DNA of 64,000 bases, taken from a virus. Positions 5,921 through 62,743 of this stretch are shown here, piece by piece. The notes beneath the pieces are model-generated. The model worked only from the letters and a program-made list of their open reading frames with translations, was not told the DNA's origin and searched no databases. The stretch is from the IMG/VR virus record IMGVR_UViG_3300033485_000001, positions 64,001 to 128,000 of that record; one strand, 5' to 3'. The position numbers were made by a program, and so were the translations under genes. Every line of letters starts with the position of its first letter. The stretch's first letter is position 1.

Positions 5921-6535
5921 ATGAACCTGGAGAAGCTCAAGGTGAAGGCGGTCATGGCCGAGAGCATGGGTCGTGAGCTCGAGAAGGACGTCGAGCGGGC
6001 CAGGACCAAGTTCTTCAAGCTCCAGGGGGCCAACGAAGCTCTCGTCGCAGCCGTCAAGGTGATCACGGATCAGGTCGGATCCACCAAGGACAAGATCATC
6101 GCGGGCGAGCTCAAGATGGAGTCGAACGACGAGATCGGCTTGGCCAAGCTCGTCGTGGCCCAGCTTCAGGGTGTGGTGCGGAAGCTCCACGATATGGCAG
6201 AGCTGGCGCATACCAACTCGATCAGAGCGGACGGTGAGCGGGCCGCGTTCGAGGACTCGGTGAAGCGGCTCAAGAGCATCTTCGACGAGGAAGTGCAGAA
6301 GCTCGAGAACCTGGAGAAGCAGATCCAGGCCGGCACGGTCAAGCTCGTCGATGGCGACCTCATGTTCGTCGGTGACGGTCCGCGTCCTCCTGGGACACAT
6401 CCGGGTCCCACGCTCAAGGCGCAGCGCCAGGCCGAGGAAGCGGCCGAGGCCGAGGCCAAGAAGGGCAACGGGGTGGAGAAGAAGACCCGGCGCCGCAAGG
6501 CCAAGACCGAGGCCAGCGATGACCGGAACACCTGA
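5921..6535 (+). CDS. Coiled-coil hypothetical protein
   Basis: GGAGGT SD before ATG 5921; heptad-rich with a basic C-terminus. Confidence 0.7.
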   Translation: MNLEKLKVKAVMAESMGRELEKDVERARTKFFKLQGANEALVAAVKVITDQVGSTKDKIIAGELKMESNDEIGLAKLVVAQLQGVVRKLHDMAELAHTNSIRADGERAAFEDSVKRLKSIFDEEVQKLENLEKQIQAGTVKLVDGDLMFVGDGPRPPGTHPGPTLKAQRQAEEAAEAEAKKGNGVEKKTRRRKAKTEASDDRNT

Positions 6536-17670: not shown

Positions 17671-18316
17671 TCTTCAGGTCATCGAGATGCGGGACATCCT
17701 GAAAGTGACCGGAGTCACCTTCGTCCCGGACTTCACCCCTCCGACACTCCTCGTGAAGGGCCAGGACTTCAACAACGCCTTCGAGGTCTACATCAACGAG
17801 TCCAAGTCGCCCAGCGTCGTCATCTCGAACAGCCAGCAACTGCTGGCCCAGGTTCCTGAGTCGGAGACGGACGCTCCTATCAGGTCCATCGTGGTCGTCA
17901 GCTCGAGGCTCATGAAGATCGAGCGCAGCAAGGTCATGTTCCGACTGGGGGACAGCCCGAAGTCGGTGGACGGGTTCGAGCGGCTCATCCAGACCTTTCT
18001 GAAGATCATGCTCCAGTCCACGAACACGGACATCTTCTCTCCGAAGCTCGGCGGCAACCTCCTCAGCGCAGTAGGTAAGCTGATCAGCAACCCGTCCAGC
18101 CAGACGCTCACTACGGACTTCACCCTGGCCGTTACACGAGCCAGGCAGCAAATCATGGCTCTCCAGGTAGGAGATCCGACTCTCAACCTCAACGAACGGC
18201 TCGCCTTCGCGAAGGTGCTCGAGGTGAAGTTCGTGCCGAGCGAGCTCGCGCTACTCGGTAGGGTCCATCTCGGCAACCAGGCGGGACGTCAATCCGCTGT
18301 CGGCTTGGGGCTGTAA
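17663..18316 (+). CDS. Baseplate wedge gp25/gpW-like protein with N-terminal Ig/IPT-like domain
   Basis: RLIQTFLKIML...DIFSPKLGGNL resembles the gp25 L.Q.I..IL.T..G...P.FG..L pattern; precedes a baseplate J-like gene. Confidence 0.6.
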   Translation: MVDLQVIEMRDILKVTGVTFVPDFTPPTLLVKGQDFNNAFEVYINESKSPSVVISNSQQLLAQVPESETDAPIRSIVVVSSRLMKIERSKVMFRLGDSPKSVDGFERLIQTFLKIMLQSTNTDIFSPKLGGNLLSAVGKLISNPSSQTLTTDFTLAVTRARQQIMALQVGDPTLNLNERLAFAKVLEVKFVPSELALLGRVHLGNQAGRQSAVGLGL

Positions 18317-33353: not shown

Positions 33354-33359
33354 CTTATA
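33354..33359 (-). promoter_or_regulatory. TATAAG -10-like element
   Basis: The same hexamer precedes minus-strand units at 50293 and 56475. Confidence 0.5.
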
Positions 33360-37259: not shown

Positions 37260-38494
37260 GACACCCCTGCCGATTCCAGGCACGTGTAGTACATCGTCTG
37301 GAACAGATCGTCGTTGCCGTAGACCTCCTTGATCAGAGCAGAGCCCTTCTCTCCCCAAGGGAGACCGTCGATGACGACCTCCCCGTCTGGCTTCACCAGA
37401 TCCCTGCCCGTGCCCTGGCGTATCAGGAGGCCCATCGTGTCAGCCGTGCTCACGACGTCCTGGTAGACGTCGAAGCCGTGCTTGAAGTAGTAGGCCACCT
37501 CGCCCTTGCCGCCCTCGTGGCAGCCGGCCTTGCCCTTCACCACCTCGTACTTCACCCACTTCCCCTCGAGCGGCTTGCCCGAGTCCGCAGGGATGCGCTG
37601 GCCCTTCATGAGGGTCACGTCCAGGAGCTTGCCGTGCTTGATGGCATGGGGACCTCCGACGGTCCACTCCCGGTCGAAGGCGCTCCTCCGGTTGCGGTTG
37701 GCGCGTACTTGGTTGATCAGGATGAGGCTCGTCATGTTCATGGAGCCCCGAGACGGATTGCCGAAGTGGTGCCAGCACATGCGCTGGAACTCGGACAAGA
37801 GGAAGGCCGACGCAGACTGCTTCGGCTCCTCGTCCATGTCCGTGTCGACTCGGTACTTGCTGACCACCGAGGCGATGGAGTCGAGGACGATCACCTGACA
37901 CCTGTTGTCGGCCACCAGATCCAAGAGGGCCTGGAGCCGGCGTTCGGTGTTCCCCTCGTCGCCGATGAGGAACTCCCCGAGGCTGACTCGCCTCCGTGCA
38001 ATCTGATCATCGGTCAGGGGGTTCATCCCCCTCTTGATGCGCTCCAGGTTCTCGAACTGGATGTCCAGGTCCGACGACGGGACCATCACGCCGTTGATGC
38101 GGGCGTGGACCTTGTCGTAGGGGACCTCGAGCCAGATCCACGCGATGCACGCCTCGTCCCCGTACAGGCGTTGCGTCTGGGCGATGACCATGTTGGACAG
38201 CGCGTTCTTCCCCACGCCGTCCGGTGCGGCGATCTGCGTGATACCGCCGGCTGGGACGCCGCCTCCCGTAACACAGTCGATGGAGGCGATTCCGAAAGGA
38301 CGGCGAAGCAGGAACGGATTGCTGGCCTCGGAGGCCCGCTTCAGGACGGTCTTCTTCGCCTGCTTGTTCACCAGGCTGATCATGTCGTCCAGGCTGGTGC
38401 CGTCCTCGATGTTGAACGTGTTGAGGTTGAACTCGTCCTCGTCCTCGGTCTTCGCCTTGCGGTTCGTCTCCTTCTTGGCCTTCCTACTTGCCAC
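37241..38494 (-). CDS. recA: RecA/UvsX-like recombinase
   Basis: GGVPAGGITQIAAPDGVGKN (Walker A variant), IVLDSIAS (Walker B), ILINQVR, VGGPHAIKH; likely GTG start at 38494. Confidence 0.85.
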   Translation of the reverse strand: MASRKAKKETNRKAKTEDEDEFNLNTFNIEDGTSLDDMISLVNKQAKKTVLKRASEASNPFLLRRPFGIASIDCVTGGGVPAGGITQIAAPDGVGKNALSNMVIAQTQRLYGDEACIAWIWLEVPYDKVHARINGVMVPSSDLDIQFENLERIKRGMNPLTDDQIARRRVSLGEFLIGDEGNTERRLQALLDLVADNRCQVIVLDSIASVVSKYRVDTDMDEEPKQSASAFLLSEFQRMCWHHFGNPSRGSMNMTSLILINQVRANRNRRSAFDREWTVGGPHAIKHGKLLDVTLMKGQRIPADSGKPLEGKWVKYEVVKGKAGCHEGGKGEVAYYFKHGFDVYQDVVSTADTMGLLIRQGTGRDLVKPDGEVVIDGLPWGEKGSALIKEVYGNDDLFQTMYYTCLESAGVSCLHKL

Positions 38495-50287: not shown

Positions 50288-50303
50288 CTTATAGCTCGGA
50301 TCT
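50288..50303 (-). promoter_or_regulatory. AGATCCGAGC-TATAAG promoter motif upstream of the replication operon
   Basis: 14/16 identical to the motif at 56470-56485; 57 bp before the first minus-strand start. Confidence 0.6.
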
Positions 50304-52377: not shown

Positions 52378-53298
52378 GTGAACGGTCATGAGGACAGGTT
52401 CATCGAGAGGTTGCAGAAGGTAGCGGCACCTCCGGAGCCGCCGCCGCCACAAGAGGAGGACGACCAGTCCCCTGCCTCCGTGGAAGCGGTGCCGGCTCCG
52501 GAGGAAGCTGCTCCTCCTGCTGAGAAGCCGAGCTTCGTCCCGATCGGACCGAAGAACGTCTTCGGTCATCACGACGCTCACCCTCTACTTCTCGATGCCC
52601 TGCTGCTCCAGAAGTACGGCCCGCTGTGGCTGGACTGGGAGCCAGAGACGATCTGGTCGGAGATCGACGACGACTTCGGCCAGGCAGTCAGCGTTCACAA
52701 CAGGAACAAGATCCAGGCCGTGAGGCTTTGCCATCTGGTGGACACCCCGTGGACCAGCTGGGAGGTGTTCGTAGTTGTGGCCCAGGCGTTCAACAACAAC
52801 GTCCCCAACTTCCGAACCCTCCAGCGTCCGACGGTTGCGCAGATCCTGAATGCGGTAAGCATCATGGACAAGATCAAGTCGGAGGACGAGGTCAAGTTCT
52901 CCGAGGAGGTCATGAAGTTCATCGCTGCTTGCTTCCTCGATGAGGGGGTGGTGTACCTGCCCCCTCCAGTGGATGAAGCCCAGCATTGGGCATCTCGACC
53001 GAGGTATCGCTGTTCCAAGTGTGGTAAGATCGACAGCGACGACGACAACGACATCTGCGACAACTGCGGGGTGTCGGACGAGTATCTCGTCAGGGAGATG
53101 GAAAGGGACTACAGATCCATCAAGAAGAGGTACGATGAGTGCGTGGCCGCCGGTCCGAAGCGAGACGAGCTCGGGGACGATACACCCGAGGACGTTCAGA
53201 CGGCCAAGCTCCTGGTCGCTGACGAGTACGTCAAGGAGCGTCGCCGGCAGCTCGAGGAGCAGACGAGGATACTGAGGGATGTCCGATCACACCTATGA
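52378..53298 (+). CDS. Conserved-looking head-module protein with K-x-A leader and zinc ribbon
   Basis: FIERLQKVAA leader, Pro-rich linker, WLDWEPETIW, CSKC...CDNC. Confidence 0.75.
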   Translation: MNGHEDRFIERLQKVAAPPEPPPPQEEDDQSPASVEAVPAPEEAAPPAEKPSFVPIGPKNVFGHHDAHPLLLDALLLQKYGPLWLDWEPETIWSEIDDDFGQAVSVHNRNKIQAVRLCHLVDTPWTSWEVFVVVAQAFNNNVPNFRTLQRPTVAQILNAVSIMDKIKSEDEVKFSEEVMKFIAACFLDEGVVYLPPPVDEAQHWASRPRYRCSKCGKIDSDDDNDICDNCGVSDEYLVREMERDYRSIKKRYDECVAAGPKRDELGDDTPEDVQTAKLLVADEYVKERRRQLEEQTRILRDVRSHL

Positions 53299-54223
53299 CA
53301 TGATCCTGTCCGACGCGATGCTCCGCGAGTTCTACATGCTCGAGAAGCAGGCAGCCACTGCGTGGACCGGACGACTTGTGGGAGCTGGTATCGGCGCCCT
53401 TGGCGGTGGTCTGGCTGGTCGCTACACAGCCCCGGAGGAACAGAAGAACCTCGGCACCGTCCGTGGTGCGATCCTCGGCGGCATAGGCGGACTTGGCGCC
53501 GGGCAGTTCGCGACCAAGGCAGGGCGCACGGAGGCACTCCAGTTCGGGCAGCGTCAGCTCCACGGAGCGACCGGCTACATGCCTGGTCGGGGTCTCTTCG
53601 GTCGTGGGGCTGAGGGGAAGCAGCTCACCGGATCCGATCGTATCAAGGCCCTTGAGGACATGGGCTTCAAGTTCGGCAAGGGCAAGGACATGAAGTCGGC
53701 CCTGAAGGAGTCCGAGAAGGAAGTCGCCGAGGGTGTGATCAGCGGGATCATGCCGAAGGGGGTCCAGAAGTTCTGGGCCAAGCGGCATGCGGCAGCGGAG
53801 CTGGCGAGGAGACAGGTAGCCGAGGCTGGGATGACCTCGCTGCCTGGCCTCGCCAAGGGCTACGTGGGTCGGGGACTACCCGTGGCGGGCAAGGTCATGA
53901 CGCCATGGCAGGCCGCGAAGACCAACCTGAAAGCTCCCGGTATCGCGATGGGTGTAGGCGTCCCCGCGCTCATGTCGGCGCAGTCCCTCGCCGAGTACGG
54001 ACAGACGGGTGACACGGGACAGCTTGCGGGATCACTCGCTGGAAACGTCGCATTGGGAGCGGGAGGGGCGTTGCCCATAACCGCCGCGATGGGACTGGGA
54101 TCAGCCGTTGGACGTGCTGGGACGCTGGTTGCTCGAGGGGCAACACGAGCGCGAGACGCGCTGGTGAACCGCCCCGTTGCGCAGCCTGTCGAACAGCCGG
54201 TTGGGCAAGTGGCTCCGCGTTGA
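53279..54223 (+). CDS. Glycine-zipper putative ejection/internal virion protein
   Basis: LEKQAA leader; GAGIGALGGGLAG and GAILGGIGGLGAG zippers. Confidence 0.7.
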   Translation: MSDHTYDMILSDAMLREFYMLEKQAATAWTGRLVGAGIGALGGGLAGRYTAPEEQKNLGTVRGAILGGIGGLGAGQFATKAGRTEALQFGQRQLHGATGYMPGRGLFGRGAEGKQLTGSDRIKALEDMGFKFGKGKDMKSALKESEKEVAEGVISGIMPKGVQKFWAKRHAAAELARRQVAEAGMTSLPGLAKGYVGRGLPVAGKVMTPWQAAKTNLKAPGIAMGVGVPALMSAQSLAEYGQTGDTGQLAGSLAGNVALGAGGALPITAAMGLGSAVGRAGTLVARGATRARDALVNRPVAQPVEQPVGQVAPR

Positions 54224-54231
54224 GGTGATCC

Positions 54232-56136
54232 ATGTTCGATTTCGGCTACGGCGGCACCAGTCACTTCCAACCCACGCACACCTACGGTCGCGTGAGAGGG
54301 CAGGCGGTCACGCAGGGCGTGGCCTACCCGTCCCCGTTCTTCGATCTGGCGCACACCTACCTCCCGCCGACGGTCAAGCAGATGTTCAAGTGGTGCAGGT
54401 ACTACTACCTCACCCAGCCGCTCATCGCTGCCGTCGTGAACAAGATGGCGGAGTATCCGATCACGGACCTCGTGATCGACACGGACAACAAGGGTCTCCG
54501 CAACTTGTGGGAGAGGTTCTTCGAGGCGGACATCCAGCTCCGTCCGAGGTTGATCGACATCGGCCTGTACTACATGTGCTACGGCAACGCGCTCGCGTCG
54601 CTCATGCACCCGTTCGTGAAGTGGCTGAAGTGCAAGTACTGCGGCCACTCGGTCATGGCGAAGAAGGCCATGTACAGGTTCCGCACCTACGAGTTCCACA
54701 TGACCTGCGACAAGTGCAACCAGACAGGTCACGCTCTTGTGGAGGATCAGTACCTCCAGACCTCGGGAGGCACCCGCATCATCCTGTGGAACCCCGAAGA
54801 CATCGACATCGTCTTCAACCCGATCACGCAAGAAACGATGTACTTCTACAGCCTCCCCATCCAGACGCTCAACGACATGGCGGTGGGACGGCGGGAGGTC
54901 ATCGAGCAGCTGCCGCAGGTCTTCATCGACGCTGCGAAGAAGCGCAAGTCGATCACGCTCAACAAGGACAACCTCTTCCACATCAAGAGGCCATCCGTCC
55001 TCTCGGGTCCAAGGGACACCGGCTGGGGTACCCCGCTGGTGCTCCCCGTCCTGAAGGACGTCTTCTACCTCCAGATCATGAAGAAGGCACAGGAGGCCAT
55101 CCTCCTCGAGAGGATCGTGCCCCTGACCGTCATCTTCCCGCAGCAGGCGAGCGGGACCGCAGATCCGTACACGAGCGTCAACCTGATCGACTGGAAGGAT
55201 CACATCGCGCAGGAGATTCAGAGGTGGAGGCTGGACAGGAACTACATCCCCATCCTGCCTCTCCCGATCGGGAATCAGGTCATCGGCGGCGACGGACGAG
55301 CTCTGCTCATGTCGCAGGAGATCAAGCTCTGGAGCGACCAGATCGTAGCTGGCATGGGGGTCCCCAACGAGTTCATCTACGGCGGCCTCCAGTGGTCCGG
55401 CTCGAACGTGTCGTTGAGGATGCTCGAGAACCAGTTCATGAGGTATCTGTCCGGACTCCTCCTCTTCATCAAGGACTTCTTGATCAAGGGTATGGCCGCC
55501 CACATGGGGTGGCCCACCGTAGGAGTCAGGTTCAAGCCATTCAAGATGGCTGATGATCTCCAGAGGAAGGCGTTCCTCTTCCAGCTCAACCAGGCCGGCA
55601 AGGTCAGCGACACGACGCTGATCAACGATGCCGACCTGAACCCGGATGAGGAGAACGATCTCCTGCGGAAGGAGACGAAGGCCCGACTCGAATCGGTGAA
55701 GGCACAGCAGATCGCGGAAGCTGAGATCGCCGGCGAGGCTGGTATCGTCCAAGCCAAGTATCAGGCGAAGGCTCAGACGATCATGTCGCAGGAACAGCAA
55801 CAGGCGGCTGCCGGATCTCAGGGCACTGCCCCTGGAGAACCCAGCGAAGAGGTGGGGTCTCAGGCAACGCCACCTCCGGCTGGTGCTCAGCAGGGTCCGA
55901 TGGGACAGCCTCAGCAGGATCCCATGCAGCAGATCGTTCAGCGCCTCCGGGCTCTGAGTCCGGAGGCCCAGCGTACCGTGCTAATGAGGATCGAGCAGAG
56001 CAACCCGGAGCTGGCGAACCAGCTTCGGGCGCAGTTCAAGGAGGGTGGTGGTGTCGATGCCTCGCCGAACTCGGCAGGCAAGCCGCTCCCAACCCAGCTA
56101 CCCCCTCGTAGGGGAACCGAATCAGCGATGATCTAA
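54232..56136 (+). CDS. Portal protein with zinc-ribbon insertion and Q/P-rich C-terminal tail
   Basis: PLIAAVVNKMAEYP, GWGTPLVLPVLKDVFYLQIMKKAQEAI, IVAGMGVPNEFIYGG; size and head-module context. Confidence 0.7.
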   Translation: MFDFGYGGTSHFQPTHTYGRVRGQAVTQGVAYPSPFFDLAHTYLPPTVKQMFKWCRYYYLTQPLIAAVVNKMAEYPITDLVIDTDNKGLRNLWERFFEADIQLRPRLIDIGLYYMCYGNALASLMHPFVKWLKCKYCGHSVMAKKAMYRFRTYEFHMTCDKCNQTGHALVEDQYLQTSGGTRIILWNPEDIDIVFNPITQETMYFYSLPIQTLNDMAVGRREVIEQLPQVFIDAAKKRKSITLNKDNLFHIKRPSVLSGPRDTGWGTPLVLPVLKDVFYLQIMKKAQEAILLERIVPLTVIFPQQASGTADPYTSVNLIDWKDHIAQEIQRWRLDRNYIPILPLPIGNQVIGGDGRALLMSQEIKLWSDQIVAGMGVPNEFIYGGLQWSGSNVSLRMLENQFMRYLSGLLLFIKDFLIKGMAAHMGWPTVGVRFKPFKMADDLQRKAFLFQLNQAGKVSDTTLINDADLNPDEENDLLRKETKARLESVKAQQIAEAEIAGEAGIVQAKYQAKAQTIMSQEQQQAAAGSQGTAPGEPSEEVGSQATPPPAGAQQGPMGQPQQDPMQQIVQRLRALSPEAQRTVLMRIEQSNPELANQLRAQFKEGGGVDASPNSAGKPLPTQLPPRRGTESAMI

Positions 56137-56171
56137 AAAGGGGAGGCGTCTCAGATGTTGAGACGCCTCCC
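56135..56171 (-). terminator. Intrinsic terminator, 13-bp perfect stem + U5 on the minus strand (possibly bidirectional)
   Basis: GGGAGGCGTCTCA-GATGT-TGAGACGCCTCCC preceded by AAAAAG on plus. Confidence 0.85.
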
Positions 56172-56201
56172 TTCACTTTCCACAGCCATCGACTCCGGAC
56201 G

Positions 56202-56297
56202 CTACTCGTCGTCGTCGGAATCGATCAGCCACTCCTCCGTGCTTCCTGTGACCACTGCGACGTACGCAGACAGGAACGCCAGGAGGAAAAGTCTCAT
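56202..56297 (-). CDS. 31-aa peptide MRLFLLAFLSAYVAVVTGSTEEWLIDSDDDE (hydrophobic N-terminus, acidic C-terminus)
   Basis: AAAGGAGGT SD; lies between promoter and terminator. Confidence 0.65.
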   Translation of the reverse strand: MRLFLLAFLSAYVAVVTGSTEEWLIDSDDDE

Positions 56298-56331
56298 CCA
56301 ACCTCCTTTCCGTCAGACGACACGGTACCCA

Positions 56332-56427
56332 TCAGTCGGCCTCGTAGTCGCCGAGGAGATCGTCCTCGACCTCCGACTCGAAGTCCGCGAGCTCGCTGTC
56401 CTCCACCACGTCTTCCGGATCCACCAT
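56332..56427 (-). CDS. 31-aa highly acidic peptide MVDPEDVVEDSELADFESEVEDDLLGDYEAD
   Basis: AGGAGGT SD; 15/31 residues D/E and no K/R; codons match the host-like GC3 bias. Confidence 0.7.
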   Translation of the reverse strand: MVDPEDVVEDSELADFESEVEDDLLGDYEAD

Positions 56428-56469
56428 GCACCTCCTGAGCTAGGGTAAGAGTTTTCCCTACTCAATGAT

Positions 56470-56485
56470 CTTATATCTGGGATCT
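56470..56485 (-). promoter_or_regulatory. AGATCCCAGA-TATAAG promoter motif for the antisense mini-operon
   Basis: Near-identical to 50288-50303; 43 bp upstream of the first sORF. Confidence 0.6.
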
Positions 56486-56581
56486 TGTCGTCCTTGCACG
56501 CGATTGGTAGAGTGAATGAAGCTCATGTTGACCCCCTAGAGGACTGTGATCCTCGATGATCGGGGGTTGCGGAGGCAGCAA

Positions 56582-59500
56582 GTGGCGAGACTTGACCCGG
56601 CCGAGGGGTTCGAGATCCTCAAGAGTCATGTGAAGGACGCGATCTCCAGCTCGTTCCCACAGGAAGGAGCCAAGAACGTCCTCAAGCTCGAGAGCCTGGA
56701 CATCCCCGACAAGCTGAGCGTCAGCAACGTCGGAGAGCAGAAGGCCGCCAAGATGAACGGGCGCACCTGGGGCGTTCCCGTTCACGCGACGCTGGTGCTC
56801 GAAGACAAGAAGACAGGCAAGGTCCTTGACCGAAGCAAGATCAAGATCGCCACGCTGCCCAAGGTGACCAACCGCTACTCCTACATCGTGGAGGGGTCGG
56901 AGTACCAGGTCGACAACCAGTGGCGGCTCAAGCCGGGCGTCTACACGAAGGTCCAGCAGAACGGTGAGCTGGATTCCTTCTTCAACATTCAGGGGCAGCC
57001 GCTGCATCTCGGCTTCGACCCGAAGGAGCGGTCCTTCGTGATGAAGCACGGAGGAGCGCAGCCCCCGCTGTACCCGATCATGCGGGCTCTTGGTCACAGC
57101 GACGGTGACCTCGAGAAGGCGTGGGGCAAGGACATCCTCAACGCCAACATGACCGACAGCCGGGGGAAGGTGCTGAAGGTCGACAAGCACGCCATCGCCT
57201 TCGCGAAGCGCCTGGTGCCAGAGGAGGAGATCACAACCCTCGAGAAGGCGTCGGAGGTCATCAAGCAGAAGTTCGCCGAGTCGCGTCTGCACCCTGACGT
57301 AACGAGCCGCACGCTGGGCAAGGCCATCGACAAGATCACACCAGAGGCGATGCTGCGCTCGTCTCAGCGCCTTCTCGGCGTGGCTCGTGGGACCGAGAAG
57401 CCTGACGTCCGGGACTCACTCATGTTCAAGGAGTTCCTCAGCACCGAGGACTTCATTGGGGAGCGGATCAAGCAGAGCAGCCCGGTCATCCAGCGTCGCA
57501 TCGGGAACAACATCGACAGGCGGGACAAGATCCGTGACATCGTGGGCATGGATGTCTTCCAGCGACCCGTCAAGGAGTTCTTCTCCAAGGTGTCCCTGGC
57601 CTCGACCCCAGAGCAGACCAACCCCCTCAAGATGATCTCGGGTCAGCTTCGTACAACGATCGCTGGGGAGGGTGGCGTCAAGGACGCGAACAGGATCACA
57701 GAGGATGCGAAGCTGGTGGACCCAAGCCACTTCGGCGTTCTCGATCCACTGCACACACCGGAGAGCGTGAAGACCGGCGTGAACCTCCAGCTCGCCCTGG
57801 GGACCAGGAAGGTGGGGACTCGCGTAGAGATCCCGCTCATCCACGCCAGGACCGGGAAGGTGACCTACCTGGATCCTGGGAAGATCAACGACGCCATGGT
57901 GGCGCTTCCCGATTCGGTGAAACGGGTGAACGGGAAGTTCTCTCCGAAGGAAGGATCCACGGTCCTGGTGAGCGGTCCTGGAAACGAGCTGATGCGCGTT
58001 CCCATGAAGGATGTCGAGTACGTCGTGCCGCGCTCGAGCCAGATGTTCTCGATCGCCACGAACATGGTCCCCTTCATCTCCAGCGATTCGCCGAACCGAG
58101 CAACCATGGCCGGCAGGCACATGGAGCAGGCCATCCCGCTCGTGAACCCAGAGGCCCCGCTGGTGCAGTCTGTCCTCGGCAAGAAGAGCTTCGACGAGCT
58201 CGTTGGTTCCTACGCCTCCCATGCGGCGCCGGCGGACGGGACCGTCCTGCGTGTCGAGAAGGACGCCATCCACATCAAGGGCTCCGACAAGAAGACCCAC
58301 ATCGTCCACACCTACGATCACTACCCGACCAACGACAAGAAGGGGATGATCCACAGCAACTCACTCGTGAAGGCCGGCGACAAGGTCACGAAGGGTCAGG
58401 TCGTAGCCGACACCAACTTCACCAAGAACGGCGTCTACGCCCCAGGCAAGAACCTCCAGGTCGCCTACATGCCGTGGCGGGGGTACAACTTCGAGGACGG
58501 CGTGGTGATCAGTGAGACTGCTGCGCAGAAGCTCACGAGCGAGCACCTCCACAAGAAGGGCCTGTCCACGAAGGAGGCGCAGCTTCTGGGGACGAAGAAG
58601 TACCAGGCGTACTACCAGGACCGTCTCAACAAGGAGCAGGCCGCCAAGCTGGATCCTGACGGAGTGGTCAAGCCTGGGATGAGGGTGAAGCCAGGAGACA
58701 CGCTGATCGCAGCTCTGGCGGAGCAGCAGCTCACCACCGAGGAGCAGAAGCTGAAGCTCTTGCACAAGAGCTTGGTGAGGCCGTTCAAGGACAAGGCAAT
58801 CACATGGGACGAGGACGTGGAGGGGGAGGTCATCGAGGTCAACAAGAGGGGGACCAGGGTCGACGTCCACGTCAAGACGGCGGAGCCGATGGACGTGGGG
58901 GACAAGCTGGTGGGTCGTCACGGAAACAAAGGAATCGTGACGATGATCCTACCAGACCACGAGATGCCGAAGACGAAGGACGGGAAACCGATCGAGGTGA
59001 TCATGAACCCCATCGGGACCCCCGGCCGTATGAACATTGGACAGGTCCTCGAGACGGCTGCCGCAAAGATCGCGCAGAAGACTGGTCAGCCCTTCAAGGT
59101 CACCAACTTCGAGGTGGAGAACAACCTCGAGTTCGTCGAGAACGAGCTCAAGAAGCACGGGCTGACCGACAAGGAATCGATCATCGATCCGAAGACGGGC
59201 AGGGAGATCCCGAACATCCAGGTTGGCCCGCAGTACATCCTGAAGATGGAACACCAGGTCGGGAAGAAGATGGCTGCCCGATCACGGGATTCTTACGACC
59301 GCAACCTGGTGCCGAAGGGTGGCGGTCCACACGGAGCTCAGGCCCTCGGCTCGCTCGGCATCTACTCCATGCTGGCCCACGGTGCCAAGGCCAACATCCG
59401 GGAGATGCAGACCTACAAGAGCGACAAGTCGCAGGGTGGTGACAACGACGAGCTCTGGAGTGCGCTCCAGGCTGGTGAGATGCTGCCCCCGCCCAGGACC

Positions 59501-62500
59501 ACCTTCGCCTACAACAAGTTCAACTCCTACCTGAAGGCGCTCGGAGTGAACACTGAGAAGGACGGCAACAGCCTGAACCTCGTGCCGCTCACGGACAAGG
59601 ACGTCCTCTCGATGTCCAACGGCGAGCTCAAGGACGCGGGCCGCGTCGTGAAGATGAGGACGCTCCAGCCGGAGAAGAACGGCCTCTTCGATCCGAAGAT
59701 CACAGGCGGGCATGACGGGACCAACTGGTCCCACATCAAGCTCACCTCACCCATGCCGAACCCCCTGTTCGAGAAAGCCATCATGAGCGTGGCTGGGATC
59801 CGTGGTCCGCAGTTCGACAAGATCATAGGTGGCACGGCGGGTGTGACGAAGGACGGCGCCATCGTCGAGCAGACGGGTGTGAAGGGGGCGACCTACGGAC
59901 CCGCAGCGATCGATCACTTGCTGGCGAAGGTGGACATCAAGAAGGACCTCGCGGTGGAGGAGGCACGGATCCAAGGGCTCAAGGGCCAGCTTCAGAACGA
60001 GTCGAGGCGCAAGATCAAGTACCTCCGTGCGTTGGACAAGCTGGGCATGAAGCCGACTGACGCCTACATGATGAAGCACGTTCCGATCCTGCCTCCGAAC
60101 ATGCGGCCCATCGCCGTGCTCGATGACGGGAGCCTCCAGACCGATGACCTGAACGAGATCTACAAGCAGCTCGCGATCGTCAACAAGAAGCACGGCGAGT
60201 TTCCGGCCAACGCGCCGCAGTCGCTCAAGGCCCCGCTCCAGGAGGACATCTACGATCACCTGAAGTCCCTCACTGGGCTCGGTGGCACCCTCAACAGGAA
60301 GCACCCTGGCATCCTCGACGTCCTCTCAGGACGTGAGGGACCGAAGACCAGCTTCGCACAGGACGTTCTGATCAAGCGCAAGCAGGACCTCACCATGAGG
60401 TCCACCATCGTCCCGGAGCCGTCCCTCTCGCTGGACGAGGCGGAGATCCCGAGGAAGGCTGCGAAGGAGATGTACAAGCCCTTCCTGGTCCGGGAGCTGC
60501 GCCGCACAGCCGGAGTCACCCCGCTTGCCGCCAAGAAGATGATCGACGAGGACGACCCGCTCGCGAACAAGGCGCTGGATCGTGTGGTTCAGGAGCGCCC
60601 TGTGCTGCTGAAGCGCGACCCGGTCCTCCACAAGTACGGCATCCAGGCGTTCAAGCCACGGCTCGTCGAGGGGAAGGCCATCAAGATCCACCCCCTCGTG
60701 TGCTCCGGCTTCAACGCCGACTTCGATGGCGACACCATGAGCGCCTACGTTCCGATCACGGCGGAGGCCGTGAAGGAGGCGGAGCAGATGTTCCCCTCGC
60801 GGAACCTCTTCTCCCCGGCCACTGGATCCGTCATGTACACCCCCGGCCACGAAGCGCAGGTCGGCCTGTTCATGATGGCCGACGCTGGGAAGTGGACTGG
60901 TCAGCGGTTCAAGAGTCAGGCCGAGCTCGAGAGCGCGGTGAGAGCCGGGAAGGCGACTCAGAACGACGTGGTCATGGTGGGGAACGTCAAGACCACGCTC
61001 GGGAGATTGCAGATCAACAGCCACCTCCCAAAGGATCTCCAGGGAGGGAAACTCCTCACCGATCTGAACTACAGGTTCACGAAGAAGGAACAGGAGAAGC
61101 TCTTCAACGGCATGGTCAAGGTCGACCGCGCCGCGTATCCGTCTTCGATCAACAAGCTGAAGGACCTCGGGAACGAGGCAGCCACGATGGGCAGCTTCAG
61201 CTTCGGCCTCGGAGACTTCAAGGTCCACAAGGACATCCGTGATCCAATCCTGCGAAGCGCGGAGGCAAAGGCGGCCAAGCTGGACCTGTCCAAGAAGGAT
61301 CAGCTCAACAAGTTCATCGACATCTACGAGGGCGCGACCAACGAGATCGATGAGAAGCTGAAGCAGCGCATCGCCGACCCCAAGTTCCAGACCAACCTCG
61401 TCAAGCTCGAGGTGGCAGCTGGGATCAAGGGAAGGGGTCTGCGGCAGCTCACGGCAGCCCCAGTTCTCTTCGTAGACGGCAAGGGCGAGGTGGTCACCAG
61501 CCCCGTGAAGAAGTCCTACGCAGAGGGCCTCTCGTCAGGGGACTACTGGGCGGCGACCAGCGGCGGCAGGAAGGGTGCGATCCAGAAGGTCCAGTCGGTC
61601 AGTGAGCCGGGCTACCTGACGAAGCAGATGGCCAACAGCACCCTCGACATGCTCGTGGCCGCCAACGACTGCGGCACCAGCCGAGGCGTGAACCTGCACG
61701 TGGACGAGCCTGATGTGATCGGCAGGTACACCGTCGCGGACCTGAAGCTCCAGAAGGGAATCATCCCGGCGAACACCCTCGTCACGCCGGAGATCCTGAG
61801 CCGTATCAAGAACGCCAAGATCGACAAGGTCGTGGTCCGATCTCCGATGCGCTGTGTCCACGGTAAGGGTGTCTGTGCGAAGTGCATGGGGCTCAACGAG
61901 AACGGGAAGCTCAACGATCTGGGAACCAACGTGGGCATCCTGGCCACCCAGTCCATCGGCGAGCGCGGCACGCAGCTTGCCATGAAGGCGTTCCACTCAG
62001 GCGGCGTCTACGAGGGCAGGGAAGCAGCCACGAAGTCCATTGCAGCGGGTGGCCTCGACCGAGCCGGCAACATCCTGAACCTCCCGCAGAAGCTCAAGGG
62101 ATCAGCGATCCTCTCGACCACTGTCGGTCGGGTGAACAAGATCGAGAAGGATCCCGCCGGCGGTGTTCGAGTCTCCATCGGGGACAAGGAGCACTACGTC
62201 CCCGCCGACCGAGCGATGCTCGACAAGGTTCGCGTGGGGTACCAGGTCAAGAAGGGCGATCCGATTACCAACGGCCCCGTCAACCCACACGAGCTGCTCC
62301 CGCTCACCAACATGAGCAAGGTGCAGGGTCACCTGGCGGGGGAACTCCATTCCATCTACGGGCAGTACGGCATCAAGCGGAGGCACTCCGAGCTCATGGT
62401 GCGGGCGCTCTCGAACGTGACCAAGGTCGAGAACCCCGGCGGCAACCCAGACCTCCTGCCCGGAGACTTCACGAGCACGAGTCAGGTCTACGAGTGGAAC

Positions 62501-62743
62501 AAGCAGAACCCGAAGACCAAGCCCGTGGTTCACACCCCAGTTCTGCGCGGTGTGAAGACGATCCCCCTCGACATCCAAGAGGACTGGATGGCTCGATTGA
62601 ACCACGAGCACTTGAAGAGTACGCTTGTGGAGGCGGCACAGCAGGGATGGCAAAGCAACCTCCACGGCATGCACCCGATCCCGCCCCTCATGCATGGGGC
62701 CGAGTTCGGAAAGGGTACCAAGGACAAGCCCTGGGCCTACTGA
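56582..62743 (+). CDS. rpoBC: Single-chain fused beta-beta' (RpoB-RpoC-like) multisubunit-type RNA polymerase, about 2050 aa
   Basis: Beta motifs HFG..DP..TPES, YMPWRGYNFEDG, GDKLVGRHGNKG, MNPIGTPGRMNIGQ. Beta' motifs VPILPPNMRP, LLKRDPVLH, NADFDGD (60713-60733), GGRKG bridge helix, QSIGERGTQL..KAFHSGG. No stop between them; GGAGG SD before GTG 56582. Confidence 0.95.
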   Translation: MARLDPAEGFEILKSHVKDAISSSFPQEGAKNVLKLESLDIPDKLSVSNVGEQKAAKMNGRTWGVPVHATLVLEDKKTGKVLDRSKIKIATLPKVTNRYSYIVEGSEYQVDNQWRLKPGVYTKVQQNGELDSFFNIQGQPLHLGFDPKERSFVMKHGGAQPPLYPIMRALGHSDGDLEKAWGKDILNANMTDSRGKVLKVDKHAIAFAKRLVPEEEITTLEKASEVIKQKFAESRLHPDVTSRTLGKAIDKITPEAMLRSSQRLLGVARGTEKPDVRDSLMFKEFLSTEDFIGERIKQSSPVIQRRIGNNIDRRDKIRDIVGMDVFQRPVKEFFSKVSLASTPEQTNPLKMISGQLRTTIAGEGGVKDANRITEDAKLVDPSHFGVLDPLHTPESVKTGVNLQLALGTRKVGTRVEIPLIHARTGKVTYLDPGKINDAMVALPDSVKRVNGKFSPKEGSTVLVSGPGNELMRVPMKDVEYVVPRSSQMFSIATNMVPFISSDSPNRATMAGRHMEQAIPLVNPEAPLVQSVLGKKSFDELVGSYASHAAPADGTVLRVEKDAIHIKGSDKKTHIVHTYDHYPTNDKKGMIHSNSLVKAGDKVTKGQVVADTNFTKNGVYAPGKNLQVAYMPWRGYNFEDGVVISETAAQKLTSEHLHKKGLSTKEAQLLGTKKYQAYYQDRLNKEQAAKLDPDGVVKPGMRVKPGDTLIAALAEQQLTTEEQKLKLLHKSLVRPFKDKAITWDEDVEGEVIEVNKRGTRVDVHVKTAEPMDVGDKLVGRHGNKGIVTMILPDHEMPKTKDGKPIEVIMNPIGTPGRMNIGQVLETAAAKIAQKTGQPFKVTNFEVENNLEFVENELKKHGLTDKESIIDPKTGREIPNIQVGPQYILKMEHQVGKKMAARSRDSYDRNLVPKGGGPHGAQALGSLGIYSMLAHGAKANIREMQTYKSDKSQGGDNDELWSALQAGEMLPPPRTTFAYNKFNSYLKALGVNTEKDGNSLNLVPLTDKDVLSMSNGELKDAGRVVKMRTLQPEKNGLFDPKITGGHDGTNWSHIKLTSPMPNPLFEKAIMSVAGIRGPQFDKIIGGTAGVTKDGAIVEQTGVKGATYGPAAIDHLLAKVDIKKDLAVEEARIQGLKGQLQNESRRKIKYLRALDKLGMKPTDAYMMKHVPILPPNMRPIAVLDDGSLQTDDLNEIYKQLAIVNKKHGEFPANAPQSLKAPLQEDIYDHLKSLTGLGGTLNRKHPGILDVLSGREGPKTSFAQDVLIKRKQDLTMRSTIVPEPSLSLDEAEIPRKAAKEMYKPFLVRELRRTAGVTPLAAKKMIDEDDPLANKALDRVVQERPVLLKRDPVLHKYGIQAFKPRLVEGKAIKIHPLVCSGFNADFDGDTMSAYVPITAEAVKEAEQMFPSRNLFSPATGSVMYTPGHEAQVGLFMMADAGKWTGQRFKSQAELESAVRAGKATQNDVVMVGNVKTTLGRLQINSHLPKDLQGGKLLTDLNYRFTKKEQEKLFNGMVKVDRAAYPSSINKLKDLGNEAATMGSFSFGLGDFKVHKDIRDPILRSAEAKAAKLDLSKKDQLNKFIDIYEGATNEIDEKLKQRIADPKFQTNLVKLEVAAGIKGRGLRQLTAAPVLFVDGKGEVVTSPVKKSYAEGLSSGDYWAATSGGRKGAIQKVQSVSEPGYLTKQMANSTLDMLVAANDCGTSRGVNLHVDEPDVIGRYTVADLKLQKGIIPANTLVTPEILSRIKNAKIDKVVVRSPMRCVHGKGVCAKCMGLNENGKLNDLGTNVGILATQSIGERGTQLAMKAFHSGGVYEGREAATKSIAAGGLDRAGNILNLPQKLKGSAILSTTVGRVNKIEKDPAGGVRVSIGDKEHYVPADRAMLDKVRVGYQVKKGDPITNGPVNPHELLPLTNMSKVQGHLAGELHSIYGQYGIKRRHSELMVRALSNVTKVENPGGNPDLLPGDFTSTSQVYEWNKQNPKTKPVVHTPVLRGVKTIPLDIQEDWMARLNHEHLKSTLVEAAQQGWQSNLHGMHPIPPLMHGAEFGKGTKDKPWAY

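Follow-up and report, generated by a model that had tools for sequence, protein, structure and literature searches.

Organization of the minus-strand unit

The DNA analysed here, hereafter called the window, is a stretch of 64,000 nucleotides that comprises bases 64001-128000 of a 178.5-kb viral record (IMG/VR record IMGVR_UViG_3300033485_000001, about 62% G+C). Two open reading frames (ORFs) of 31 codons each, named pepA and pepB in this work, are located on its minus strand between two plus-strand genes: the portal gene (54232-56136, 634 aa), which is convergent with them, and the gene of a single-chain beta-beta' RNA polymerase (56546-62743, a 2065-aa ORF), which is divergent from them. Judged by its sequence, the minus strand of positions 56135-56475 is an autonomous unit in which a TATAAG-type promoter and an intrinsic terminator enclose two 31-codon genes, each with its own ribosome-binding site. 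The first-pass annotation of this DNA had proposed such a self-contained unit, made up of a promoter motif, two translated-looking small ORFs and a perfect 13-bp terminator with a U-tract, and every one of its elements was found at its coordinates on the minus strand by sequence inspection.

The unit begins with the promoter-like element TATAAGATCATTGAG (56461-56475), in which a TATAAG core at 56475-56470 is followed by ATCATTGAG down to 56461; it belongs to the ATC subclass described below. The Shine-Dalgarno sequence AGGAGG of pepA (56431-56436) is separated by 3 nt from the ATG of the ORF (56332-56427) and by 6 nt from a GTG at its second codon. The encoded peptide contains 15 Asp or Glu residues and no Lys, Arg or His. 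For pepB (56202-56297), the Shine-Dalgarno sequence AAAGGAGG (56302-56310) stands 4 nt before the ATG, and the product has a hydrophobic N-terminus and an acidic C-terminus (GSTEEWL, then Asp/Glu). These distances of 3 and 4 nt after AGGAGG are short, and for this reason the true start of pepA may be the GTG of codon 2.

The terminator (56135-56171) is formed by a perfect 13-bp stem with nine GC pairs and a 5-nt loop (56171-56141), followed by C and TTTTT (56140-56135), and this T-run shares bases with the stop codon of the convergent portal gene. Its folding energy is -27.4 kcal/mol (z = -6.5), and none of 200 shuffled sequences was as stable. For comparison, relatives were gathered by scanning viral contigs for the portal and metagenome contigs for the polymerase, which gave about 130-140 loci (cited below by their L numbers). 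Equally stable hairpins with quite different stems were found at the same place in four to five of the relatives, including L002, L055, L057 and L005, and the T-run is on the minus strand in every relative examined. A putative stem-loop in the 5' part of the transcript (56435-56465) is a weak lead: L002 and L055 also have hairpins there, with stems that differ in sequence, and none of the three is significant when taken singly (z about -1 to -2). No match to Rfam was obtained at E <= 1.

Coding potential of the two ORFs

To evaluate the coding signal, a codon log-odds score was trained on 67 long genes of the same genome, and 257 ORFs of 25-40 aa lying out of frame inside long genes were used as the null set. 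pepA reached 0.64 per codon, which is above all 257 null ORFs, and pepB reached 0.30, which is within the top 4.7% of them. The median score for 31-codon windows of true genes is 0.42, and both ORFs fall within the range of these windows. A crude greedy gene map built from the codon score called both minus-strand ORFs; a 97-aa plus-strand ORF at 56155-56448 was passed over by this map. In six of six pairwise comparisons, those of pepA with L002 and L055 included, nonsynonymous divergence (pN) was lower than synonymous divergence (pS), with pN/pS of about 0.4-0.5 for pepB against both L002 and L055.

The same region could also be read as untranslated, that is, as a bidirectional terminator with a regulatory spacer or an antisense RNA, since the hairpin is also 3' of the portal stop codon and could serve the plus strand. 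This reading is extremely unlikely in view of the gene-like codon scores, the strong Shine-Dalgarno site ahead of each ORF, the survival of the ORFs through heavy divergence with pN < pS, the conservation of the peptide motifs across more than 50 loci and 29 database representatives, and the minus-strand orientation of the T-run. On sequence criteria, both ORFs are very probably real genes.

Conservation and linkage to the polymerase gene

A tblastn search of related phages, which had been suggested in the first-pass annotation, found both small ORFs conserved at this locus; in relatives with an 89%-identical portal, both peptides are encoded at the same place. pepA and pepB are kept in L002, L004 and L055, whose portals are 78-89% identical to that of the window. 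Peptide identity drops to 39-66% in these loci and the DNA has diverged heavily, yet the reading frames, the Shine-Dalgarno sites, the promoter 15-mer and the terminator hairpin have been retained. Both ORFs are again found at this position in relatives with a polymerase identity of 35-88%, and in the loci at 35-66% polymerase identity a small acidic ORF and then a small membrane ORF are the first genes divergent from the polymerase gene. A fixed position beside the polymerase gene, which the pair keeps even where the polymerases are only about 35% identical, is typical of a core gene and not of accessory counter-defence.

The linkage was also counted across the loci. In 45 of 83 distinct loci, the 450 nt ahead of the polymerase gene contain a membrane-type small ORF on the divergent strand, compared with 38 of 379 control pieces taken antisense to polymerase genes (Fisher P = 1e-17). 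Profiles of the two peptides, run against six-frame translations of all fetched loci, matched in 53 loci for pepA and in 57 loci for pepB. All matches that could be checked against a polymerase gene are on the minus strand and directly upstream of that gene; the four left over (one of pepA and three of pepB) are near the ends of loci that stop short of the polymerase gene, and none is placed elsewhere. When the count was made on the 87 loci with at least 450 nt 5' of the polymerase gene, both profiles matched in 40, pepA only in 8, pepB only in 12 and neither in 27, so that 60 of 87 carry at least one of the two. Several of the 27 profile-negative loci contain versions recognisable by eye as divergent, some of them without the acidic tail.

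It is the polymerase gene, and not the portal gene, that the pair follows, because the pair is still divergent from the polymerase gene where the portal gene is elsewhere. Among the loci that are centred on the portal and end before the polymerase gene, profile matches occur in L003, L007 and L010 only, all near the end of the locus, and no copy of the pair positioned by the portal instead was found in them. In many loci the distance between the two ORFs is -4 or -1 nt, with an overlap that is often ATGA, and this overlap suggests that they are probably co-translated. The same arrangement was found in a database relative: the gene of P0003, a 50-aa pepA homologue on a 203-kb contig, is divergent from that of a 2129-aa fused polymerase.

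Part of this conservation is hidden by gene-calling practice. The statement of the first-pass annotation that the ORF track had missed both genes is correct as far as length cut-offs are concerned, but pepA is present as an exact entry in the ESM Atlas. Likewise, homologues of pepA are included in public gene calls, whereas those of pepB are left uncalled there. For example, in L142 (5162-5263, plus strand), the locus of P0003 on the 203-kb contig, a 33-aa pepB homologue that exactly fills the gap after the pepA homologue was skipped by the public gene call. Automatic annotation of this phage clade probably leaves out pepB systematically. A DNA search of cultured phages gave a single match, which covers 4% and corresponds to the polymerase of phage Arash, and no cultured member of the subclade was found. 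The unit of the window is the minimal form of a pair kept, directly upstream of the polymerase gene and divergent from it, by a large clade of uncultured phages with genomes of about 150-200 kb and a single-chain polymerase.

Properties of the two peptides

For pepA, AlphaFold2 (AF2) predicted one helix at residues 11-30, with a predicted local distance difference test (pLDDT) score of about 81-85 in its core. The predicted helix is amphipathic, with a hydrophobic stripe and an otherwise acidic surface, and it includes the core ADFESEVEDDLLGD. The acidic peptides of the relatives align on the motif [ST]Gxx[FY]Exx[VIM][DE]x[LM][FY]G, which is usually followed by a run of Asp/Glu; this acidic tail is absent from some pepA homologues and lineages. 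An exhaustive hidden Markov model (HMM) search of 1.84 billion representative proteins returned 29 relatives at E <= 0.001, with lengths of 35-62 aa and without a single fusion. A further set of 5.8 billion proteins gave 19 matches at E <= 0.01, all of them unnamed and without Pfam domains. When a profile was built from distant homologues only, the pepA frame of the window ranked first among 4582 six-frame pieces of the genome, with E = 1.1. pepA and its longer homologues had no match above noise in Pfam, PHROGs or NCBIfam, the pepA profile had no match in the PDB, and a feature search of the ESM Atlas with pepA gave no usable match. pepA is best described, from its sequence, as a stand-alone acidic peptide of an unnamed family whose conserved part is a predicted amphipathic helix.

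pepB was predicted by AF2 as a single long helix at residues 2-30, with pLDDT of 86-91 across the first 20 residues, and its hydropathy in a 15-residue window peaks at 2.4. It has the characteristics of a single-pass membrane microprotein, being shorter than 50 aa with one predicted helix of membrane-spanning length, and is modelled as such. The peptide is 50-66% identical in L002 and L055. In most relatives the membrane peptide has a hydrophobic stretch with GxxxG followed by a Trp. A profile built on this distant GxxxG-W form fails to recover pepB of the subclade to which the window belongs, and so the window copy is linked to the family only by its position, order and length, by its membrane helix and by a remnant G-x(3-4)-W. 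Searches of Pfam, PHROGs and NCBIfam with pepB gave no match above noise, and the PDB gave only chance-level transmembrane matches (TIM17 and a MurE-like protein, E >= 0.04). A separate observation was made in L056 (2062-2290, minus strand), where the pepB homologue (GDWLFEGEE) has no ATG, GTG or TTG after the preceding stop. Its overlap with the stop of pepA reads CTGA, and it may be initiated at this CTG, be read by reinitiation or be decaying.

The first-pass annotation had described the products as two acidic peptides, one a soluble polyanion and the other membrane-anchored or secreted. The soluble polyanionic helix and the membrane anchor agree with the predictions, but secretion does not, because no conserved cleavage site is present. 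An arbitrium-like secreted peptide was considered for pepB and rejected, as neither a conserved cleavage site nor a mature peptide or receptor was found: the tail after the helix is unconserved and often basic, and the only neighbours are the portal and polymerase genes. The acidity of the second peptide is correct for the window but is not a trait of the family, since the tail is basic or amphipathic in most relatives.

Since pepB is short and hydrophobic, with GxxxG in its family, it could be supposed to be a membrane-damaging toxin, a holin-like or a lysis-timing peptide, for which pepA would be the coupled leader or neutraliser according to the logic of mok/hok or of antiholins. Translation of pepB may depend on the ORF before it, since the two overlap in many loci, and the unit has its own promoter and terminator. 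However, pepA has its own conserved motif and family and hence is more than a coupling ORF, the site is far from recognisable lysis genes, a promoter of the early type would be odd for a lysis factor, and neither an antisense-RNA signal nor an Rfam match was found. This explanation is considered very unlikely.

Promoter elements of the phage genome

The hexamer TATAAG occurs 26 times in the 178.5-kb genome, always in promoter-like contexts, and 20 of the 26 copies are in the non-coding 9% of the genome (binomial P = 3e-16). Those of the window are at 33354-33359, 50288-50293 and 56470-56475, all on the minus strand. Two subclasses were distinguished, represented by TATAAGATC and TATAAGGG. In one, TATAAG is followed by ATC; it includes the site of pepA and several copies of the full 15-mer. 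In the other, TATAAG is followed by GG and usually preceded by GATC, and its GATCnnGnTATAAG+GG form stands ahead of DNA-metabolism operons. Identical or near-identical copies of TATAAGATCATTGAG are located at intergenic sites of the genome, and the same 15-mer is upstream of pepA in L002 and L055. An element of the TATAAG or GATAAG type precedes pepA in 16 of 26 relatives, in some of which it is very close to the gene, so that the mRNA may be leaderless.

A scan of positions 53000-58000 for the sigma-70 consensus found none; only the -10-like TATAAG is present and no -35 element. The conserved bases downstream of TATAAG suggest that these sites are read by a phage-specific factor or enzyme. 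No phage sigma factor was detected in the phage genome with Pfam Sigma70_r2. Two further features of the sites were noted. GATC is present in both subclasses and is a possible methylation site. Copies of the motif TCTTAG are found shortly before several TATAAG sites and also right ahead of Shine-Dalgarno sequences downstream of them; outside the window such copies are at genome positions 17690-17760, 38290-38345 and 53806-53830 (loci L136-L138).

The genes of an AAA ATPase and a DNA ligase, and the replication operon with helicase and uracil-DNA glycosylase (UDG), are placed behind GG-type sites, whereas ten of ten sampled genes behind ATC-type sites had no Pfam match. The first-pass annotation had stated that the unit shares the promoter of the replication operon; this is true of the TATAAG core and of some flanking bases, but the replication operon belongs to the GG subclass. 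The early expression that it had assumed is plausible from the ATC subclass.

From these features the first-pass annotation had proposed an early anti-defence or host-takeover cassette. pepA would then be a free polyanionic DNA mimic that blocks a DNA-binding enzyme of the host, such as a restriction enzyme, a CRISPR effector or the host RNA polymerase, and pepB would be a small membrane effector, for example an inhibitor of cell division or of a transporter. The extremely acidic composition of pepA is in line with this, as is the promoter subclass, which is common to small operons without Pfam matches and thus typical of early genes; moreover, small single-pass inhibitors of host membrane machines are a known theme among phage early genes. 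Several facts disagree. Conservation of the pair is deep and positionally fixed, while counter-defence genes are usually located in variable regions and turn over fast. Within pepA, conservation is seen in the amphipathic helix and not in the acidic tail, which is missing in some lineages. As a 31-aa single helix, pepA lacks the folded, B-DNA-like acidic scaffold of the DNA mimics Ocr, ArdA and Arn, it does not belong to their family profiles, and no anti-restriction Pfam family was matched. No positive evidence for an Ocr-like DNA mimic or another anti-defence function was obtained, and the cassette as a whole is regarded as quite unlikely, although DNA mimicry may be a mode of action of the acidic tail.

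Genomic neighbourhood

The polymerase ORF has Pfam matches to Rpb2_6, Rpb2_3, Rpb1_1, Rpb1_2 and Rpb1_5, all in one chain, which identifies it as a beta-beta' fusion. Although 56546 is the first in-frame GTG, the real start is probably GTG 56582, since its GGAGG-n6-GTG is kept in L002. A block CTTGCA-n9-TAGAGTGAA at 56490-56515 (plus strand), upstream of the polymerase gene, is also conserved in L002 (about 6300-6330). The genome has only this one copy of the block, which rules out a repeated late promoter; the block may be a control element of the polymerase gene that overlaps the upstream region of the pepA promoter.

The portal and its counterpart in Salmonella phage Arash, Gp204, have 28% identity (E = 2e-82), and the PHROG portal matches are weak. 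It was also noted that an insertion of the form Cys-x2-Cys ... Cys-x2-Cys, which weakly matches the PHROG zinc finger phrog_1257 (E = 0.011), is present at 54610-54745 (portal residues about 128-171), and that the C-terminal third of the portal is of low complexity and rich in Gln, Pro, Gly and Ala.

The leftward operon is longer in distant relatives, where pepB is followed by the genes of two proteins of about 200 aa, of a MoxR-type AAA+ ATPase and of a DUF2201 protein. Examples are L089 (1-2140, minus strand) and L142 (5260-9190, plus strand): the first of the two proteins has about 204 aa, the second has about 200 aa and is acidic and Cys-rich, and the ATPase is of the AAA_3/AAA_5 type. An additional 161-aa ORF right after pepB in L089 resembles an HNH homing endonuclease by eye only. 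When the genome of the window was searched for the two proteins of about 200 aa, the AAA+ ATPase and DUF2201, none was found. pepA and pepB are the only part of the leftward operon retained in every lineage, and in the window the pair has a terminator of its own.

Possible role of the pair

The best overall explanation is that pepA and pepB are a conserved microprotein pair forming a core unit tied to the polymerase gene, to which a probability of roughly 0.6 is given. Being inherited as a core with the polymerase gene, the pair would be expected to have its partner in the infection programme of the phage itself or in a universal host target, and not in a strain-specific defence. In the proposed mechanism, the pair would be produced early, from a promoter subclass shared with other small operons without assigned function. 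The two peptides would then act together at the cytoplasmic membrane, where pepB would be the anchor and pepA would be an acidic helix plugging a basic or hydrophobic groove of a partner protein. That pepA and pepB work as a pair at the membrane has, from what their sequences suggest, about an even chance of being correct, and any single specific target would be unlikely.

Several points weigh against this explanation. First, the pepA of the window matches the profile of distant homologues with an E value of only 1.1, despite its first rank. Second, the pepB of the window could be an analogous replacement and not a member of the family. Third, the charge of the pepB tail differs by lineage, being acidic in the window and basic or amphipathic in most relatives, and this flip makes a fixed topology or a fixed pepA-pepB contact less likely. 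Fourth, the assignment to an early class would be drawn only from the promoter subclass and from the unannotated genes that share it. Fifth, neither profile matched in the genomes of the cultured distant relatives Arash and Vibrio phage D69, where a plus-strand ORF of about 92 aa takes the place between portal and polymerase gene; the pair is therefore not required by every phage with such a polymerase.

The linkage to the polymerase gene, and not to the portal gene, also raises the possibility that the two peptides are accessory factors of the phage's own single-chain RNA polymerase. The helix of pepA would dock on the enzyme and its acidic tail would fill the nucleic-acid channel, in the manner of the delta tail or of sigma region 1.1, while pepB would tether or release pepA at the membrane and thereby control the timing, recycling or packaging of the polymerase. 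The sole retention of the pair from the leftward operon in all lineages fits such a role, and so does the joining of an amphipathic helix to a poly-Asp/Glu tail in pepA. The homologue of this polymerase in Arash, Gp206, is virion-borne and exceeded all other proteins of purified virions in its number of spectra (PMC10585845), which makes it probable that polymerases of this type are carried in the particle. Acidic phage proteins that bind RNA polymerase exist as well, such as Gp44 of SPO1, whose flexible acidic segment can engage the beta and beta' subunits (PMC8208478). On the other hand, gene linkage in phages often reflects an inherited order of modules and not function, Arash and D69 have a related polymerase and no detectable pair, and some pepA homologues lack the acidic tail. 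A role as polymerase accessory factors is considered unlikely. Its most explicit form is quite doubtful, namely that pepA is a helix-plus-polyanion plug of the channel of a probably virion-borne polymerase, that pepB is its membrane tether, and that the two jointly gate polymerase activity or packaging.

Whichever partner applies to the conserved pair, two genes below the normal gene-calling length appear to be real, ancient and fixed beside the most unusual gene of the lineage, a single-chain polymerase of bacterial type. Two unannotated microprotein families and a phage promoter motif become usable for annotating hundreds of uncultured phage genomes of 150-200 kb. If the pair acts on the polymerase, it would offer a very small and tractable handle on the regulation of that enzyme; if it acts on the host, it would be a compact two-part effector. 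The present value is a solid gain in annotation and not a mechanistic surprise.

Comparison with known systems

Phage morons are autonomous units of promoter, gene and terminator inside the late operons of lambdoid phages, and they are typically patchy in distribution and recently acquired. The unit of the window resembles them in having its own promoter-like element and intrinsic terminator between genes of the virion block, in the opposite direction. However, morons often differ in composition from their surroundings, whereas the window unit has native codon usage; and in place of a sporadic distribution it is fixed at one position across a deep clade and heads a longer operon in the distant relatives.

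With T7 Ocr, T4 Arn and SPO1 Gp44, pepA shares its richness in Asp/Glu, the lack of basic residues and a plausible early expression. Those proteins are folded or multi-domain and of about 90-240 aa, whereas pepA has 31 aa and one predicted helix; it conserves an amphipathic motif and not an array of charges, and it has no sequence or profile similarity to them.

The C-terminal tail of the delta subunit of Gram-positive bacteria and region 1.1 of sigma-70 are polyanionic accessory regions of RNA polymerase. The combination of a putative docking element with an Asp/Glu-rich tail, which could mimic nucleic acid, is similar in pepA, whose gene is tightly linked to a polymerase gene. There is no homology, and pepA differs as a separate microprotein paired with a membrane peptide that has no counterpart in those systems.

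AcrZ, MgtR, MgrB and SidA are single-pass regulatory microproteins of bacteria. Although pepB has no sequence similarity to them, is phage-encoded and is always placed after the gene of an acidic partner, it resembles them in its length of less than 50 aa, in its single membrane helix, which has a face of the GxxxG or small-xxx-small type, in its interfacial Trp, and in being missed by standard gene callers.

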